Of a stretch of 64,000 nt of DNA, positions 821-18,412 are shown one piece after another. Position 1 is the stretch's first letter. Each line of letters begins with the position of its first letter. The DNA lies in the NCBI GenBank assembly GCA_963701855.1, contig CAVPBK010000006.1, positions 192,001 to 256,000 of the forward strand, read 5' to 3'. Source of the DNA: Nitrospirota bacterium (lineage in GTDB: Bacteria; Nitrospirota; Nitrospiria; Nitrospirales; Nitrospiraceae). The position numbers and the translations under genes were made by a program. Under the pieces are notes generated by a model, which saw only the letters and a list, made by a program, of their open reading frames with translations, had not been told where the DNA came from and made no database searches.

Positions 821-1444
821 CTACCACCAATGACGACGGAAATATCCTAAAATGCGGGGATAAGGCATGACTTCATACAGGCGGGCCGCTTCATGTGACG
901 GTTCCGGAATCAGCATCACCGGAACCCTCGCATTATAAGTGGGATATGTGTCCTTGACGAACTGTCGGGCTCGCTCCTGGTCTTGCTCATCAAGAGTCAT
1001 GGATACAACGACTTGGCGTCCATATTTCGGAGAATCCACTCCGAAATGCCAGGTGCCGAGAAAAGTCATTACGTTCGGCTTGAGCACAAAGTTCGCTGAG
1101 AGCTCCGCCATGGACAAGAATGGACCTTCGCTGATCTGCACGCGACTCAGTTCATAGGTCCCAGGAGGAAGGGCAAGCGAAAAGTACTCGTCCGCGGACT
1201 GCACATCGACCTTAAATCGCTCCTGGTTCGCCATATTTATCACCTCGAAAGAACGGAGTTCCGGAGCATAGATTCGTTGCATTTCACCGGTAATGTTCGT
1301 GACAACCCGTCCCACCACCAAGGTCCCCGAAATGTCAGCCGCCGCCACCATCACGGGAAGTTCTGTGGCACAGCCTGAGAGAGTCAGGCAGAGGGCACCG
1401 ATAGACAACCACCACCGATATTGTCTCAATAATCTGTACCGCAT
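821..1444 (-). CDS. Hypothetical lipoprotein, upstream of apbE
   Basis: 207-aa ORF with lipobox LSGC after a hydrophobic signal. Confidence 0.75.
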   Translation of the reverse strand: MRYRLLRQYRWWLSIGALCLTLSGCATELPVMVAAADISGTLVVGRVVTNITGEMQRIYAPELRSFEVINMANQERFKVDVQSADEYFSLALPPGTYELSRVQISEGPFLSMAELSANFVLKPNVMTFLGTWHFGVDSPKYGRQVVVSMTLDEQDQERARQFVKDTYPTYNARVPVMLIPEPSHEAARLYEVMPYPRILGYFRRHWW

Positions 1445-1534
1445 ATGTCGATATTATAACCCAACTACGAGACCAATACCTGGCGTCCCGCTGATCAAGT
1501 CCCCCCTCTTGACTCCAATTGCGAAAATAGGATA

Positions 1535-1551
1535 TTAATAATCGTTCTCAA
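1535..1551. promoter_or_regulatory. Putative Fur box in the divergent promoter region
   Basis: TTAATAATCGTTCTCAA resembles the Fur 7-1-7 consensus TGATAATnATTATCA; a TTGACT -35-like hexamer lies at 1509-1514. Confidence 0.65.
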
Positions 1552-1579
1552 TTTCATTTGAGCAGAGGAGTATCTCGCA

Positions 1580-1759
1580 ATGACGAGCACGACGTCTCCT
1601 ATGAACCACTTCGCCGACTGCGGCGAGACCCGCTGCGAGTGCGGTCAATTGATCGCCAAGGTGCGCGATCAAGGGTTGGAGCTCAAATGCAAGCGCTGTA
1701 AACGTATCGTTGTCATCCCATTCTCTTCAATCGAAGGATGGGGCACTGTTGATTCATGA
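1580..1759 (+). CDS. Small zinc-ribbon protein resembling phage Mu Com (59 aa)
   Basis: Below the ORF-track cut-off. GAGGAG SD at 1565-1570. Translation MTSTTSPMNHFADCGETRCECGQLIAKVRDQGLELKCKRCKRIVVIPFSSIEGWGTVDS has the RCxCG-L-AK...LELKCxRC pattern. Confidence 0.75.
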   Translation: MTSTTSPMNHFADCGETRCECGQLIAKVRDQGLELKCKRCKRIVVIPFSSIEGWGTVDS

Positions 1760-1896
1760 TTCGTCTCACGAAAGGAGGCATTGGAAGTGTTGTCGCACTA
1801 TCCCATTTGCACAGACTAGTCATTTCTTCAAGAAGGCCAGAGACCATCGAGTCCCGAGTCAGACCTCAACCATCTCACTCACCACGGAGGATACCG

Positions 1897-3402
1897 ATGA
1901 AGATCCGGTCAATCCTCGGGGCTCTCGTGATTGCAGCTTTGCCGTTTACTTCGGTTTGGGCTGAGAACATGACCCCAGAGGACATTAAAAAGTTAGTGGA
2001 TGAAGCCGTGACGAAGCGGCTGCAAGAACAGGAACGCCGCGATGGCGCTCCTGAGCAGAAAGAGGGTACGGCAATACCCAAGGCCGAACCGGGAATTGGA
2101 CCGCTGCCGGAAGTCAGTAAAGACCTTCGTACGGAGACACAGCCTGCGTTGTCCTTTAGTTCAACCGGCTCAGGTCGTTTGGTCTATGCCAAGCCGTTCG
2201 TCTCCGCACCGAAGGCTATTGTCGGAGGATACATGGATATGCAGTTTCGGTCCCAACGGCAAGCCAGCATCGAAGCCGGTGATGGCCGACCCGGTGTGAC
2301 CAACAACTTCGATCAGCAACGGTTTATCCCGTTTATTTATGCCGACGTCACCGAACACGTCAAGATCGCGACCGAACTTGAAATTGAGCACGGCGTCAGA
2401 GAAAGCTCTGAGAATGAGATCGAAGTCTCACTTGAGTTTGGTTTTATCGACTACTTAATCCAAGAAAAGGTCAACCTACGTGCCGGAATCTTGCTTATGC
2501 CCCTTGGGAAGTTCAATTTGCTACACGACTCCCCACTAAACGATCTCAGTGATCGGCCGCTGGTCAGCCAATTGGTCATCCCTTCTACCATGTCGGAAAC
2601 TGGAGCGGGAATCTACGGAACGTTTTATCCCGGCCGGACCAGTAAGATGGACTACGAGTTGTACGTCACAACCGGTCCCTGCGGCTACGGGGCCAACGGC
2701 AGTCCTCTCGTCAATGAAGCGGATGGCACAAGTCAAGGGCGTCAGAGGACCTGTGCAGGGCACGATGGCGCCGATGTCAACAGTGGCAAAGCGGTCGTCG
2801 GACGCATGGCCTACAGCCCAATGCTTGGGGTGGAAGTCGCCGGATCAAGCTACTTTGGAAATGCGAACAATAATGGGAGCAATTACGCCCCTCTCAACAT
2901 CACAGCGATCGACTGGACGCTCCAGCGAGGCCCCTTTGAACTCATCGGCGAAGCTGCCTGGGCTTATGCGAGAGGAAATTCTCGAGCCGTTCAAGGAAAT
3001 ACGATTGGATTTTCTCCGGGTTCCCTGCTTATTGGTTCCCCCGACATCAGCGGCAACAGCGGTGCAGGCATCCCGCCGCAGCGCATGATGGGCTACTATA
3101 TCCAAGGCAACTATCATTTCATGCCCCAGTTCTTGACCAATTTCTCCCCAAAACGCTTCGGTCCAGGTTCGACCATGACCGCCGTGATCCGGTACGACCG
3201 GGTCAACACCAACTTGGATGACTCCAATGGAACAGGCGGCTGGGGCAATCTGGAACAGGTTTCCTTTGGCCTGAATTATCGACCGATTGAAGATACGGCC
3301 ATTAAGCTCAGCTACCAATATCAACCGATGGCGTTTAACGCGGTTACATCACAGCGTATTCACGACAGTGCCGTGGTAATGTCGATAGCAACATATTTCT
3401 AG
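1897..3402 (+). CDS. Outer-membrane beta-barrel (porin-like) protein
   Basis: GGAGG SD at 1886-1890, signal peptide MKIRSILGALVIAALPFTSVWA, amphipathic beta strands, C-terminal Phe (IATYF). The ORF-track start at 1756 is probably too long. Confidence 0.8.
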   Translation: MKIRSILGALVIAALPFTSVWAENMTPEDIKKLVDEAVTKRLQEQERRDGAPEQKEGTAIPKAEPGIGPLPEVSKDLRTETQPALSFSSTGSGRLVYAKPFVSAPKAIVGGYMDMQFRSQRQASIEAGDGRPGVTNNFDQQRFIPFIYADVTEHVKIATELEIEHGVRESSENEIEVSLEFGFIDYLIQEKVNLRAGILLMPLGKFNLLHDSPLNDLSDRPLVSQLVIPSTMSETGAGIYGTFYPGRTSKMDYELYVTTGPCGYGANGSPLVNEADGTSQGRQRTCAGHDGADVNSGKAVVGRMAYSPMLGVEVAGSSYFGNANNNGSNYAPLNITAIDWTLQRGPFELIGEAAWAYARGNSRAVQGNTIGFSPGSLLIGSPDISGNSGAGIPPQRMMGYYIQGNYHFMPQFLTNFSPKRFGPGSTMTAVIRYDRVNTNLDDSNGTGGWGNLEQVSFGLNYRPIEDTAIKLSYQYQPMAFNAVTSQRIHDSAVVMSIATYF

Positions 3403-3444: not shown

Positions 3445-3470
3445 ATGACCAAGAAAGAGCAGTGTGCAGC

Positions 3471-3935
3471 ATGACAACACTCCGAATAGCTATGGTGGTC
3501 CTCGCGCTCTACTCTGTTGGATGCGCTACTCTGAGTGGAAGTCACGATCAATATTTCGTATGCTCCTATGACACTGTCTGGGATGCCGCGCTCGACACCA
3601 TGAAGGGACAATCCATCGCAACCTACGACAAAGATAAGGGAGTGATCGAGACAAACTGGCTGGACGTCCCTCCAATCTCGGAACGGTCCTACGGGATATT
3701 TGAGCGTGATAGCTTTGGGAACCAAGAACGGGCACGCTATACTGTCTCCGTCAAGCGAATGAACGACGTGTCCTCTGCAAGCATCTTAGAAACCAGGCAG
3801 CGATGGCATGCACGCGGTGGCGTCACCCAGCAAGCCTTGAGGTGGTGGCCCATCGAACCATCGGATGATGCGACGGATGTAGTCGTCAGTCGGCTCAATG
3901 CCAAGTTGAAAACCAAGGGGTGTATTCCCGCATGA
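3471..3935 (+). CDS. Hypothetical lipoprotein
   Basis: Lipobox SVGC after a hydrophobic stretch; stop overlaps the next start (ATGA). Confidence 0.75.
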   Translation: MTTLRIAMVVLALYSVGCATLSGSHDQYFVCSYDTVWDAALDTMKGQSIATYDKDKGVIETNWLDVPPISERSYGIFERDSFGNQERARYTVSVKRMNDVSSASILETRQRWHARGGVTQQALRWWPIEPSDDATDVVVSRLNAKLKTKGCIPA

Positions 3936-4609
3936 GGCTTCGATTACTTGCGCCCGCACTGGCACTTTCCTGTATCATGTCTCCGGCCATGGTCCTGGCT
4001 GAACGTGTATGGGACAAAGATCTCAAACGCTACCTCACGGACCAAGAGCTGATGCGGGCCGACGTCTTTCTGACAGAAGAAGACGCCCTCAAATTGATGT
4101 TCCCCCAATCAGAACGGATCCGGAAAGAAATTCTGAAGCTAAGCCAGGAAAAGAAACTGCAGGTTGAGGAACGCATTGGCTGGAAATTCCCGGAAGATTC
4201 ATTTGAGATCTACATTGGAGAAACGGGCACCCAGATTGATGGGTATGCCCTGGTCCAGAACACAATCGGTAAACACAAACCCATGACGTACATGGTCGGA
4301 ATAGATAACACCGGGCATGTCTTGAACGTAGAATTGTTGGTGTTTCGGGAAGCTCGCGGCAGCGAGGTGCGGACCAAACGCTTCAACGTACAGTACGAGG
4401 GGAAAACGGTCCTCGATCCGGTCCGCCTCAACAAAGACATCATCAACATCAGCGGCGCCACCATGTCGGTCCGCTCAATGACCGCAGGAATTAAACGGGG
4501 GCTGGTGTTGGTCGATGAGTTTTATTTGAAACCGGCAGGGCTCGGTAGCGATACTGTGGATTCAAAGAAATCGGAGAAGGGCATCTTCGGCTCACTCTTC
4601 GGAAACTAA
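3932..4609 (+). CDS. Exported FMN-binding domain protein (predicted ApbE substrate)
   Basis: Signal peptide, RnfG-like core (YMVGIDNTGHVLNVELLVFRE) and flavinylation motif DIINISGATMS ([S/T]GAT). Confidence 0.85.
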   Translation: MRLRLLAPALALSCIMSPAMVLAERVWDKDLKRYLTDQELMRADVFLTEEDALKLMFPQSERIRKEILKLSQEKKLQVEERIGWKFPEDSFEIYIGETGTQIDGYALVQNTIGKHKPMTYMVGIDNTGHVLNVELLVFREARGSEVRTKRFNVQYEGKTVLDPVRLNKDIINISGATMSVRSMTAGIKRGLVLVDEFYLKPAGLGSDTVDSKKSEKGIFGSLFGN

Positions 4610-4633: not shown

Positions 4634-5152
4634 ATGCGCAACTTCAACACTCGCTTCCGTCTCCGCGACTCAGATCGGCACATCCGGCTCGTTTATACCT
4701 TCTTTCTCTTCTTGATGCTGGCTGGCTTTACCTTTTCATTTTTCTGGGCGCACAGCATGACGAGCCTTTCGCCACAAGGAATCGCCGATCATTACCGGGG
4801 ATCGGATGTCACATTCGGCGAGCCGATGTCATTCAGAGAGCTGGCAGAGATCACCCACTTCCACCTCTTCACGATGCCAGTCGTGTTTATCATTCTCGTG
4901 CATGTGCTCTATCTCACCAGCGCCAGCAGTATGCTAAAAGTCCTCACGACCTGGATCTCATTTGGTGGGGTGACGTTGGACCTGGTATCTCCCTGGCTCA
5001 TTAGCTATGTCTCCCCCGTATTCGTGTTCACCATGCTGACAGGCGATACCTTGATGACGGTGGGTTTTCTCATCATGATGATCATCCCTCTCTACGAGAT
5101 GTGGATCTTGAACCAGCCGCTATTGGCAGGGAAACACGGGAAGGAAGAATGA
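4634..5152 (+). CDS. Inner-membrane protein (~4 TM) with several His, possibly cytochrome b-like
   Basis: Four hydrophobic segments; His in WAHS, DHYRG, EITHFHLF and LVHVL. Confidence 0.65.
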   Translation: MRNFNTRFRLRDSDRHIRLVYTFFLFLMLAGFTFSFFWAHSMTSLSPQGIADHYRGSDVTFGEPMSFRELAEITHFHLFTMPVVFIILVHVLYLTSASSMLKVLTTWISFGGVTLDLVSPWLISYVSPVFVFTMLTGDTLMTVGFLIMMIIPLYEMWILNQPLLAGKHGKEE

Positions 5153-5201
5153 CCTAACGCGCTCTGACTTCGACACAATTAACGGCCAGAGGTTTTTCAC
5201 C

Positions 5202-5246
5202 CAGAGCCCAAGATCACGCGATGTGGTCTTGGGTTCTGCTTTTTTT
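5202..5246 (+). terminator. Intrinsic terminator
   Basis: CAGAGCCCAAGATCAC-GCGAT-GTGGTCTTGGGTTCTG followed by a T-run. Confidence 0.8.
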
Positions 5247-5259
5247 CGGAGAAGCCACG

Positions 5260-5970
5260 ATGTACCCATATATCTCTGAACAGATTCACCCTGGAATCAT
5301 CACGATTCAGGGCATGCTCAGGAAGATCGATTGCCTTCGACTCCCTCTCGCATCGCGCCGTGACGTCGAAAGCATCCTTGTGCGGCAAGTCAGCAAAGAA
5401 ATCGATCGCGCACTCCCCTGGCAAGCTGGTCATGGCCGCCGCACTGCTGCGATTTCGTTGTTGATCGGACGAGCGGTCGGCACGACGACAGGCGAGTTGC
5501 ACGATCTGAAACTCGCCGCCTTCCTCCACGATATCGGGCTCTTGAGGCTCCCAGCCCGCCTCATCCCGGCCAAGGAACCGCTTGAATCTGAAGACTACGT
5601 CGCCATTCAGAATCATCCCCGGCTTGGTGCGACACTGCTTGAGCCATTCTCCTTCTTAAAAGAGGCTTCGATCCAAATCGCGCACCACCACGAACGGTGG
5701 GATGGATCAGGCTATCCGTATGGTATCAGAGGACAATTCATCCCTCTCGGAGCCAGAATCCTCTCGATCGCCGACGCCTTCGATGCCATCCGTATCCCTG
5801 AAGTCTCAAACCGAGCCGTGCGAAACAGGATCGCACTCAGAATTCTCCGAGTCGCAGCCGGCACCCAGTTTGACCCGGAGTTAGTCGAGGCATTGTGGCT
5901 GTTCCAAGAATCTATTCCGGGCTCAAATCTTATCGAACCAACGACGAGAAACTGTTTTGATTCACATTAG
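5260..5970 (+). CDS. Stand-alone HD-GYP domain protein (putative c-di-GMP phosphodiesterase)
   Basis: LHDIG, HHHERWDGSGYP, ADAFDA and GTQFDP motifs; GGAG before ATG 5260. Confidence 0.85.
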   Translation: MYPYISEQIHPGIITIQGMLRKIDCLRLPLASRRDVESILVRQVSKEIDRALPWQAGHGRRTAAISLLIGRAVGTTTGELHDLKLAAFLHDIGLLRLPARLIPAKEPLESEDYVAIQNHPRLGATLLEPFSFLKEASIQIAHHHERWDGSGYPYGIRGQFIPLGARILSIADAFDAIRIPEVSNRAVRNRIALRILRVAAGTQFDPELVEALWLFQESIPGSNLIEPTTRNCFDSH

Positions 5971-8404: not shown

Positions 8405-8490
8405 GGCTTTCCCCTTTCTGAATTATGACAGGCCCTTAGAGCCGCTATGGGTGAAGAGACTTTCACCGCCAGATGGCTTCATCTCGATTC

Positions 8491-17534: not shown

Positions 17535-18412
17535 GGCGCTGACTTCTCGATCAGATCCGCTCCCGCCCCAGCCTTCGTGGCCTGTCCATACGACGTCTGA
17601 ATTACCAACACTTCCTCCACACGACCGACATCGACTTCCGGCATGAGTTCGGCGGACTGGAAAAGGGCGCCTTCCTGTTTATCGATGCTCGTGATCGTGC
17701 CGATCACGAGCCCGCGGGGGAAGTCTCCGATAAGGCCAGAGGTCACGATTCGATCACCGTCTCGGAGCGTCGACAACAACGGAATGTACTTCATCTGGGC
17801 CAGCCCTTGTTGAGTCCCTTCCACAATGCCTTCATCTCTCGTCCTCTGGATGAGACCAGCGATGGCGTTGTTCGGATCAGTCACCAAGAGCACCACCGAA
17901 GACGCCCCTGTCGTTTTCACAACGCGCCCGACAACACCGGCTGGTGTGACCACTCCCATATCCGGCTTAATCCCATCGCTCTCGCCCTTATTGAGAATAA
18001 GGGCACGATACCGATTCGTGGCATCACGCCCGACGACTTGAGCGGCTATCATTGTAGGGAGCGCCTGCTCCTTAAAATGCAGCAAGGCCGTCAATCGTTC
18101 TGTCGCGGCGGCTGATTCGCGCAACTGGCTATGTTGGCCGCGCAGCCATTCGATTTCTTTCCGTAGTTGCTGGTTCTCTTCCTGCACCCCTTGCAACGCC
18201 ACGTACCGCTCCCAACGATCGGCAATGCCGGCATCGATGGACGCAATGGTTTCAAGTGGAATACGTACCACGTATCCGACCGGCCCACCTAGATACTGCA
18301 AGAGTCCTTGGATTTGACTGGGAAACAGAAAAAGAGCCACCAGCAGGAGGGCAAAGCAGGCAAGCGCAATACGTCTGGCACCGTAGGGAGAACTAGAATG
18401 AGCCATCCACAT
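17531..18412 (-). CDS. mreC: Rod shape-determining protein MreC
   Basis: TM plus coiled coil, LNKG..DG, GVVGRV, VTSG...FP.GL.IG. Confidence 0.95.
   Translation of the reverse strand: MWMAHSSSPYGARRIALACFALLLVALFLFPSQIQGLLQYLGGPVGYVVRIPLETIASIDAGIADRWERYVALQGVQEENQQLRKEIEWLRGQHSQLRESAAATERLTALLHFKEQALPTMIAAQVVGRDATNRYRALILNKGESDGIKPDMGVVTPAGVVGRVVKTTGASSVVLLVTDPNNAIAGLIQRTRDEGIVEGTQQGLAQMKYIPLLSTLRDGDRIVTSGLIGDFPRGLVIGTITSIDKQEGALFQSAELMPEVDVGRVEEVLVIQTSYGQATKAGAGADLIEKSAP

Follow-up and report, generated by a model that had tools for sequence, protein, structure and literature searches.

Nearly everything known of the zinc-ribbon protein Com comes from a single phage gene pair. We describe here a chromosomal relative in a 64,000-nucleotide stretch of DNA from a Nitrospirota bacterium (contig CAVPBK010000006.1, positions 192,001 to 256,000; hereafter the window), where a gene for a protein of 59 amino acids, the com-like gene, lies between a Fur-box-like operator and a gene for a porin-like outer-membrane protein. 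The core interpretation is that of a chromosomal Com-type protein and a Com-target-like hairpin that would control the operon after transcription. It is well supported by sequence comparison, and the arrangement of the gene and its candidate RNA sites points to a so far undescribed RNA-level layer in the control of iron uptake. A Com-type protein with a candidate RNA site appears to be a fixed and widely conserved part of iron-uptake operons in nitrite oxidisers and related bacteria.

The com-like gene and its operon

The genes and expression signals of the locus, in window coordinates, are as follows.

1509-1536, plus strand: promoter-like TTGACT-16-GATATT, a consensus match only
1531-1549, no strand assigned: Fur-box-like operator, overlapping the -10 region of the promoter-like site
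1566-1570, plus strand: Shine-Dalgarno sequence AGGAG of the com-like gene, 9 nucleotides ahead of its ATG
1580-1759, plus strand: com-like gene, 59 amino acids, predicted zinc ribbon with C19-x-C21 and C37-x-x-C40
1770-1778, plus strand: conserved GAAAGGAGG, directly 3′ of the com-like stop codon
1886-1890, plus strand: Shine-Dalgarno sequence GGAGG of the porin gene
1897-3402, plus strand: porin-like outer-membrane protein gene
3462-3935, plus strand: lipoprotein gene of the operon
3920-4609, plus strand: gene for an exported FMN_bind (RnfG-like) protein
4634-5152, plus strand: gene for a 172-amino-acid membrane protein with four transmembrane segments (4-TM), without family match
5261-5970, plus strand: HD_5 (HD-GYP-like) gene behind a terminator; likely start ATG 5261, behind GGAG
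821-1444, minus strand: divergent gene for a 207-amino-acid lipoprotein-like product, without family match

By its conservation the 59-amino-acid open reading frame (ORF) is a real gene, linked to the operon of porin, FMN protein and 4-TM protein; nearly always it stands between a Fur-like box and this operon. The com-like protein was matched in 46 of 61 related genomes. A profile of its family finds members in 139 of 401 genomes of the phylum and in 70 of 75 and 39 of 40 genomes of two main families; the gene also occurs in several further families of the class and is rare outside it. One homolog, 85% identical, bears the source name ‘Nitrospira sp.’. A com-like gene lies directly 5′ of a porin gene in 58 loci from several families, and the lipoprotein, FMN_bind and 172-amino-acid membrane protein genes follow the porin gene wherever the locus extends far enough. 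The Fur-like box of the window differs from the E. coli consensus at 4 of 19 positions, a fit that none of 100 shuffles of the upstream region equalled, and a Fur-like site with at most 5 mismatches precedes the com-like gene in 43 of the 58 related loci. The longest ORF of the HD_5 gene would start within the terminator stem, at 5221; translation more probably begins at the ATG at 5261.

A preliminary description of this DNA had reported the ORF, with a good Shine-Dalgarno sequence behind the Fur box and no phage genes nearby. The ORF, its ribosome-binding site and the other features described are indeed present at the positions given, and none of nine neighbouring proteins scanned belongs to a phage family. 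The description had also called the ORF unlisted, which is correct only in part: databases already contain homologs as hypothetical proteins, and the Joint Genome Institute (JGI) names several of them ‘phage FluMu protein Com’. Two side observations concern the surroundings of the gene. The divergent 207-amino-acid lipoprotein-like gene is kept beside it in many loci of two families. GAAAGGAGG, directly behind the com-like stop codon, is kept in most loci of the genus and is replaced by AAGGAGG in another family, with no conserved ORF behind it.

The com-like protein has cysteines at positions 14, 19, 21, 37 and 40. C14 is variable across the family, while R18, C19, C21, G22, L24, A26, K36, C37, R39, C40 and R42 are invariant. 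An AlphaFold2 (AF2) model predicts a three-stranded ribbon (strands 24-28, 32-37 and 43-47) with a predicted local distance difference test score (pLDDT) of ∼88-90 over residues 21-50; both ends of the protein are variable in sequence. In its small size, folded N-terminal ribbon and variable tail, the 59-residue product is thus of the Com type in the wider sense. Searched against the Protein Data Bank (PDB) with Foldseek, the model gave no match at E ≤0.001, and its weak rows include generic zinc ribbons. A sequence search of the PDB found no Com structure, Mu Com itself giving chance-level matches only.

Two routes detect homology between the zinc-ribbon core of the protein and that of Mu Com and its relatives. 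An hhalign comparison of profiles built from 14 com-like family members and 15 Mu Com relatives gave 97.5% probability (E 5e-12) over 33 columns. BLASTP against Mu Com itself, with the sequence taken from the phage Mu record, gave E 9e-5. Both alignments contain a one-residue gap in the first knuckle. The proposal of a chromosomal Com-type protein is thereby borne out computationally. The hidden Markov model (HMM) check that accompanied it went the other way: the window ORF does not match Pfam PF10122 (Zn_ribbon_Com; gathering cut-off 22.9 bits) even at E 10, and with CxC as its first knuckle it has only the second of the two CxxC knuckles that hold one zinc in the Pfam family. A paralog in the same genome passes the model at 23.6 and 23.1 bits, and four further com-like relatives score 12-17 bits, under the cut-off. 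Because profile-profile and BLASTP homology and the JGI names agree, yet the Pfam model fails, we place the com-like family among the Com-type zinc ribbons as a sister branch that has diverged and carries CxC in its first knuckle, outside PF10122 as defined.

Other family assignments gave little. Pfam scans of the window ORF returned only a weak, generic Zn_ribbon_4 match (E 0.043), and NCBIfam scans nothing. The cysteine spacing CxC...CxxC is also that of Bfd, the bacterioferritin-associated ferredoxin, considered here since a bfr gene lies nearby; the protein has no Pfam BFD-like 2Fe-2S match at E up to 10. As a side observation, the family profile shows a weak match (E 0.011) to a eukaryotic zinc ribbon, that of PIP4P/TMEM55 (PDB 8oqh), both reading RC-x-C...LIAK, and a single com-like relative weakly matches Pfam Tmemb_55A (E 0.053). 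This likeness of residues 18-42 may reflect convergence or a very old type of ribbon.

Candidate RNA boxes behind com-like genes

The com-like gene of the window is followed by two candidate RNA sites, one in the porin leader and one ahead of the HD_5 gene. Their parts, and the structures with which they overlap, are listed here.

1835-1865, plus strand: near-invariant leader RNA block GGCCAGAGACC-NNN-GAGTCCCGAGTCAGACC, from the alignment of family leaders
1840-1855, plus strand: Com-type hairpin GA-GAC-CAUCGA-GUC-CC (GAGACCATCGAGTCCC), 3-bp stem, 6-nucleotide loop, C-G closing pair
1849-1858, plus strand: GAGUCCCGAG, 5′ arm of a long-range helix, overlapping the 3′ half of the hairpin
1862-1865, plus strand: GACC, pairing with GGUC 1907-1910 as a second short helix
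1915-1924, plus strand: CUCGGGGCUC, 3′ arm of the long-range helix, in porin codons 7-10
5184-5209, plus strand: second RNA box GGC-CAGA-GGU-UUUUC-ACC-CAGA-GCC(C), fused to a terminator
5202-5246, plus strand: intrinsic terminator, 17 pairs (5202-5238) plus a T run; the 3′ end of the box, CAGAGCCC, serves as its 5′ arm

Leaders were aligned for 27 genus loci and then for 34 family loci. Across the latter the block 1835-1865 is near-invariant, free variation being confined to three loop bases, and the flanks vary with insertions and deletions. With up to 2 mismatches allowed, the 17-nucleotide 3′ part of the block occurs once in the genome of 4.3 Mb. The block can also fold as a two-stem box (-5.2 kcal/mol) with outer stem 1835-1837/1858-1860 (GGC/GUC), inner stem 1842-1844/1851-1853 (GAC/GUC) and an internal loop CAGA/CCGA, the same plan as in the terminator-fused boxes described below.

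The hairpin within the block had been described beforehand as resembling the Com target, and it fits the published consensus for that target. Selection of ligands by exponential enrichment (SELEX) with a Com zinc finger yielded GAG(N)2CC twice, flanking a stem of 3-4 bp that is closed by a C-G pair and carries a loop of ∼6 nucleotides; CC(N)2-3GAG in the loop was bound and GA was protected (PMC6483171). The Mu site in the phage record (L051:1376-1393) has an outline like that of the leader hairpins. Directly 3′ of the com-like gene, the window likewise has a hairpin with GAG(N)1-2CC on both sides of the stem and a C-G closing pair. Leaders of the window's family read GAGACC-NNN-GAGUCC and those of other families GAGGACC-N2-4-GAGUCC, at the same place and with the hairpin GA-GGAC-C-N2-4-GA-GUCC-C(C). 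One family has a second, upstream hairpin with GGGC/GCCC, GGGU/ACCC or GAGC/GCUC stems.

A pattern specifying GAG and CC only had 65 hits in the 58 leaders behind com-like genes, and the free stem positions were complementary in 60 of them, with six stem types; against the genome background, complementary stems occurred in 33 of 86 hits. The bipartite motif is present in 55 of the 58 leaders and in none of seven operons, from two families, that have no com-like gene, although the genomes compared are related, so that these co-occurrence and stem counts overstate independence. Of the checks proposed earlier, conservation of both ORF and leader motif was thus confirmed. The covariation check came out mixed, with compensatory stem changes between families but none within the family. 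In one operon without a com-like gene (L085, genome G053) the leader holds a remnant, CGAGUCCCG, and CGGGAC lies early in the porin ORF; this may be the relic of a lost module. A search of five loci (34 kb) with Rfam found no family for the boxes and one chance-level Thr_leader hit elsewhere.

Could these resemblances be fortuitous, a generic small zinc ribbon beside a meaningless 3-bp stem? The short hairpin motif has 30 hits in the genome against 27 for the reversed control, and so is not enriched; the 8-mer GGCCAGAG, which opens both boxes (1835-1842 and 5184-5191), occurs 5 times in the window where 2.7 are expected, within chance; and Foldseek gives nothing specific. The comparative data already contradict this explanation: the block is near-invariant over 34 genomes amid variable flanks, the hhalign probability stands at 97.5%, and the linkage is kept in 58 loci of several families. 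We consider chance very improbable. The hairpin stands above it because of its conservation across genomes, not by stem energy or motif counts.

The preliminary description had noted the repeat of GGCCAGAG just ahead of the terminator as a possible further target, and this second site proved to be a genuine related element. The copies at 17734 and 42852 were examined and are not elements. Boxes of the same frame (GGCCA-NN, inner stem, loop, inner stem, N-GAGCC) lie 3′ of seven of the first nine other gene copies examined. A loose pattern for this frame, run over all related loci collected with shuffled inserts as the expectation, gave 60 matches; an in-register inner stem of 3-4 bp was present in 34 of the 60, against 8.8 expected. 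The stems are GGAC/GUCC (13), GGU/ACC (7), GGA/UCC (6), GGUC/GACC (4) and, once each, GGAA/UUCC, GGAU/AUCC and GGG/CCC, seven types in all. With one probable chance match set aside, 33 credible boxes remain. In 28 of these the box runs into a terminator-like hairpin that begins inside NGAGCC and is followed by a U run. The fused terminators are mostly strong (-19 to -37 kcal/mol), and these boxes lie mostly beside paralogs that precede TonB receptor, AraC, PepSY and HD genes. The hairpin GGCUC-UAA-GGGCC ahead of bfr, proposed as another target, does exist (8441-8453, minus strand). Its mRNA strand has no GAG-N-CC, and the hairpin has not been conserved in L050, which among the 4 comparators alone comes from a genome scored as the same genus; the proposal was dropped.

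Two other arrangements were observed around the boxes. In L030 and L050 (genomes G023 and G011, scored as the same genus) a terminator-fused box and the HD gene come directly behind the com-like gene, and the block from porin to membrane protein is absent. The window has this block, with one of the two GGCCAGAG boxes on either side of it (1835 and 5184), an arrangement that would fit its gain or loss by recombination between boxes. Separately, five com-like genes have a terminator-fused box upstream as well as downstream (L044:3200, L092:218, L094:180, L096:178 and L106:49); the upstream boxes would allow autoregulation or control by another paralog.

Second com-like copies extend the range of candidate target genes. 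Of 20 such copies fetched, 14 show a box by eye, and a following ORF was found for 15: four TonB-dependent receptors, four AraC-type regulators, two HD_5 proteins, two PepSY_TM proteins, one porin and two products without family. The paralog in the window's own genome (292904-293053, G000:C5) belongs to a FecR-ExbB-ExbD-TonB locus, where it lies between tonB and a FecA-type receptor gene; a box with terminator (293089-293150), the FecA-type receptor with its STN domain and a PepSY_TM gene follow. This region, G000:C5:287480-296900, is a second iron locus of the same genome (L049 covers 288904-299020). It begins with a Fur-like site and a box-plus-terminator at 287546, behind which come an ORF resembling extracytoplasmic function (ECF) sigma factors, FecR, ExbB, ExbD, TonB, a 152-residue ORF without family and the com-like paralog.

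The box at 287546, with no com-like gene directly adjoining, is one reason to ask whether the RNA blocks act without the small protein, as self-contained translation or termination structures, small-RNA targets or RNase sites. The zinc ribbon would then have another job: it might regulate by binding DNA, carry metal or work alongside the uptake system in the cytoplasm. The link between protein and RNA does rest on sequence comparison, NCBI names Mu Com relatives ‘Com family DNA-binding transcriptional regulator’, and CxC...CxxC recalls iron-binding sites. Set against this are the joint occurrence of gene and motif (55/58 versus 0/7), a motif that equals the experimentally selected Com site (PMC6483171), stem covariation that points to RNA and not to a DNA operator, and the lack of any Pfam iron-sulfur or Bfd family match to the protein. 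We regard a role of the boxes independent of the protein as quite unlikely. A different protein-independent scheme, classical attenuation by the small ORF as a leader peptide, was rejected because conservation has kept the product a Com homolog and because stop codon and box lie anywhere from ∼20 to >140 nucleotides apart.

Competing structures and the direction of control

A second predicted structure also draws on the 3′ half of the leader hairpin. In RNAalifold analysis of 34 family sequences, the only consensus helix pairs 1849-1858 with 1915-1924, and minimum-energy folds pair the hairpin region with the early porin coding region in all 15 leaders folded. In 27 of 27 genus loci, porin codons 6-9 (ATC CTC GGG GCT; 1912-1923) do not change at any position, not even at synonymous sites, while neighbouring codons vary synonymously. 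The second short helix reads AACC/GGUU in place of GACC/GGUC in one locus (L078). Other families pair different sequences likewise, GAGGACCCCGAG with CUCGGGGUCCUC, and GAGGGCC/GGCCCUC as against GAGGAC/GUCCUC. When the hairpin segment was compared by RNAduplex with successive windows of the ORF, the first 60 nucleotides beat all 15-20 later windows in 43 of 55 loci; a whole-leader version of this test was dropped for its high background energies in favour of the hairpin-segment test. Hairpin and helix are mutually exclusive, because 1849-1855 belongs to both. The candidate sites thus overlap predicted inhibitory RNA structure of the downstream gene at 1849-1858 and also, through the terminator, at 5184-5209.

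We favour, at a probability of about 0.6, the reading that the 59-amino-acid product is a divergent Com-type zinc ribbon and probable RNA-binding regulator, that the GAG-N-CC hairpin boxes on the same transcript are its cognate sites, and that control is positive. Homology, conservation, covariation, co-occurrence and mutual exclusion of structures were computed here, whereas RNA binding, zinc binding and this direction of control are inferred. Iron limitation would lift Fur repression, and the small protein would be made first from the shared mRNA and would then turn on the genes 3′ of its own, as Com does for mom in Mu. Site 1 (1835-1865) lies in the porin leader, and its 3′ half would double as the 5′ arm of the 10-bp helix with codons 7-10; together with the second short helix, this helix would enclose the porin ribosome-binding region in a loop. 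By holding the RNA in its hairpin form, bound protein would prevent the long-range helix. At site 2 (5184-5209), the last bases of the box also belong to the 5′ arm of the terminator ahead of the HD-domain gene, and protein bound there would hinder the terminator and allow read-through. Post-transcriptional control of the operon by such a protein and hairpin was the central proposal of the preliminary description, and every comparative test run agrees with it (homology, SELEX fit, stem changes, co-occurrence and helix overlap).

Several results weigh against this reading, beginning with the failed PF10122 match and the CxC knuckle already given. The hairpin 1840-1855 is weak by itself (-1.2 kcal/mol, 3-bp stem). 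Hairpin and long-range helix are both invariant within the family, leaving covariation only between families. Three of the 58 leaders have no bipartite motif and carry another box type instead, and six of the 20 second copies show no element on inspection by eye. In the duplex comparison, 12 of the 55 loci fail to beat every control window. Finally, fixing the hairpin lowered the unpaired probability of the porin ribosome site (-14..+4) in 26 of 34 family loci and raised it in none; in other families accessibility rose in one of 18 and fell in seven. In the window, the Shine-Dalgarno GAGGAU then pairs with the freed AUCCUC at 1912-1917.

These accessibility changes bear on a rival in which the protein and boxes are the same and the sign is reversed. 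Holding the hairpin would free the ORF segment AUCCUCGGGG to pair with the porin Shine-Dalgarno sequence and shut translation, which would yield feedback or, if folding needs zinc or iron, a metal-replete off switch. Besides the drop in the 26 family loci and the pairing at 1912-1917, this scheme has in its favour that CCUC occurs in the ORF partner segment of all three families. The change is mostly nil in other families, however, and the same procedure applied to Mu com-mom, where activation is established, gave 0.39 → 0.39. Because this known activation shows no change either, the accessibility proxy has little power and cannot decide direction, and it was rejected for judging sign. In Mu, Com activates (PMC6483171), and the majority of boxes adjoin, as fused elements, strong terminators (-19 to -37 kcal/mol), where a bound protein could plausibly act only by preventing termination. 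Activation is ranked first for this last reason, and we consider negative control unlikely.

A wider version of the preferred, activating reading can be sketched as a speculative extension, and as a whole it is doubtful. There would be a class-wide network of Com-type riboregulators under Fur, with 1-4 paralogs per genome, each reading its own variant of a ∼26-nucleotide two-stem GAG-N-CC box. A box would be fused either to an intrinsic terminator, for protein-dependent antitermination, or to a helix that closes the ribosome site. The gated genes would be porins, TonB receptors, PepSY reductases, AraC regulators and the HD-GYP-type gene. The CxC...CxxC metal site may tie the switch to zinc, iron or redox state, and metal status would then be read again at the RNA level.

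Relation to known systems

If the activating reading is true, a protein-dependent RNA step is added to the Fur regulon of hard-to-grow bacteria, and Com-type control is extended from translation to transcription termination. The loci also offer dozens of natural protein-RNA pairs with covarying stems, in which it can be asked how so small an RNA-binding domain recognises its target. In genome editing, the Com-RNA pair serves as a tethering tool. A literature search, with subscription journals outside its scope, found no paper tying Com-like proteins to iron uptake or to Nitrospira; Com is mentioned in papers on genome editing and delivery (PMC8470269, PMC9369418).

The terminator-fused boxes invite comparison with BglG/SacY and its ribonucleic antiterminator (RAT) and with HutP, where antitermination depends on a protein whose RNA element overlaps a terminator. 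The box of the window similarly shares bases with the 5′ arm of its terminator, where a bound protein would block termination. The protein folds and RNA motifs differ from those of the com-like system.

In haem uptake, HemP/HmuP/ChuP offers a functional analogue. This small protein is encoded first in a Fur-repressed haem-uptake operon and acts positively and post-transcriptionally on the outer-membrane receptor gene that follows and on a second receptor gene located elsewhere (PMC9131926). The likeness to the com-like gene lies in a small-protein gene that heads a Fur-repressed uptake operon. HemP/HmuP/ChuP differs in belonging to an unrelated family with no cysteine ribbon, in having haem as its proposed ligand and, in the account that PMC9131926 gives of it, in an RNA target left undefined.

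Closer by family are the Pseudomonas com-like genes (PF10122), which precede genes for L-type bacteriocins, tailocin cargo and levansucrase, and whose role ‘remains to be explored’ (PMC6240691). They too represent an unstudied chromosomal Com homolog just 5′ of one particular gene. Their proteins are of the classical CxxC type and tied to phage-derived or bacteriocin genes, and the passages of PMC6240691 that treat them describe no RNA element or iron link.

The nearest relative in mechanism would be Mu com-mom itself. Both proteins have ∼60 amino acids, an N-terminal four-cysteine zinc ribbon and KC-x-RCKR in the second knuckle, and in both systems the regulator gene lies directly 5′ of its target on one mRNA. 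Both RNA sites are short hairpins flanked by GA and CC with a C...GA loop, and both overlap the 5′ arm of an inhibitory helix. In Mu, the Com site abuts the translation inhibition structure of mom (PMC6483171), and the exclusion between hairpin and helix in the porin leader follows the same logic. The window protein departs from Mu Com in its CxC first knuckle and in failing the Pfam model. The Nitrospira-type setting is one of chromosomal, Fur-controlled iron-uptake loci without phage genes, with 1-4 com-like paralogs per genome among the genomes of the phylum. The inhibitory helix of the window enters codons 7-10 and leaves the start codon uncovered, unlike that of Mu, and the fusion to intrinsic terminators that most related boxes show is a mode that has not been described for Com.

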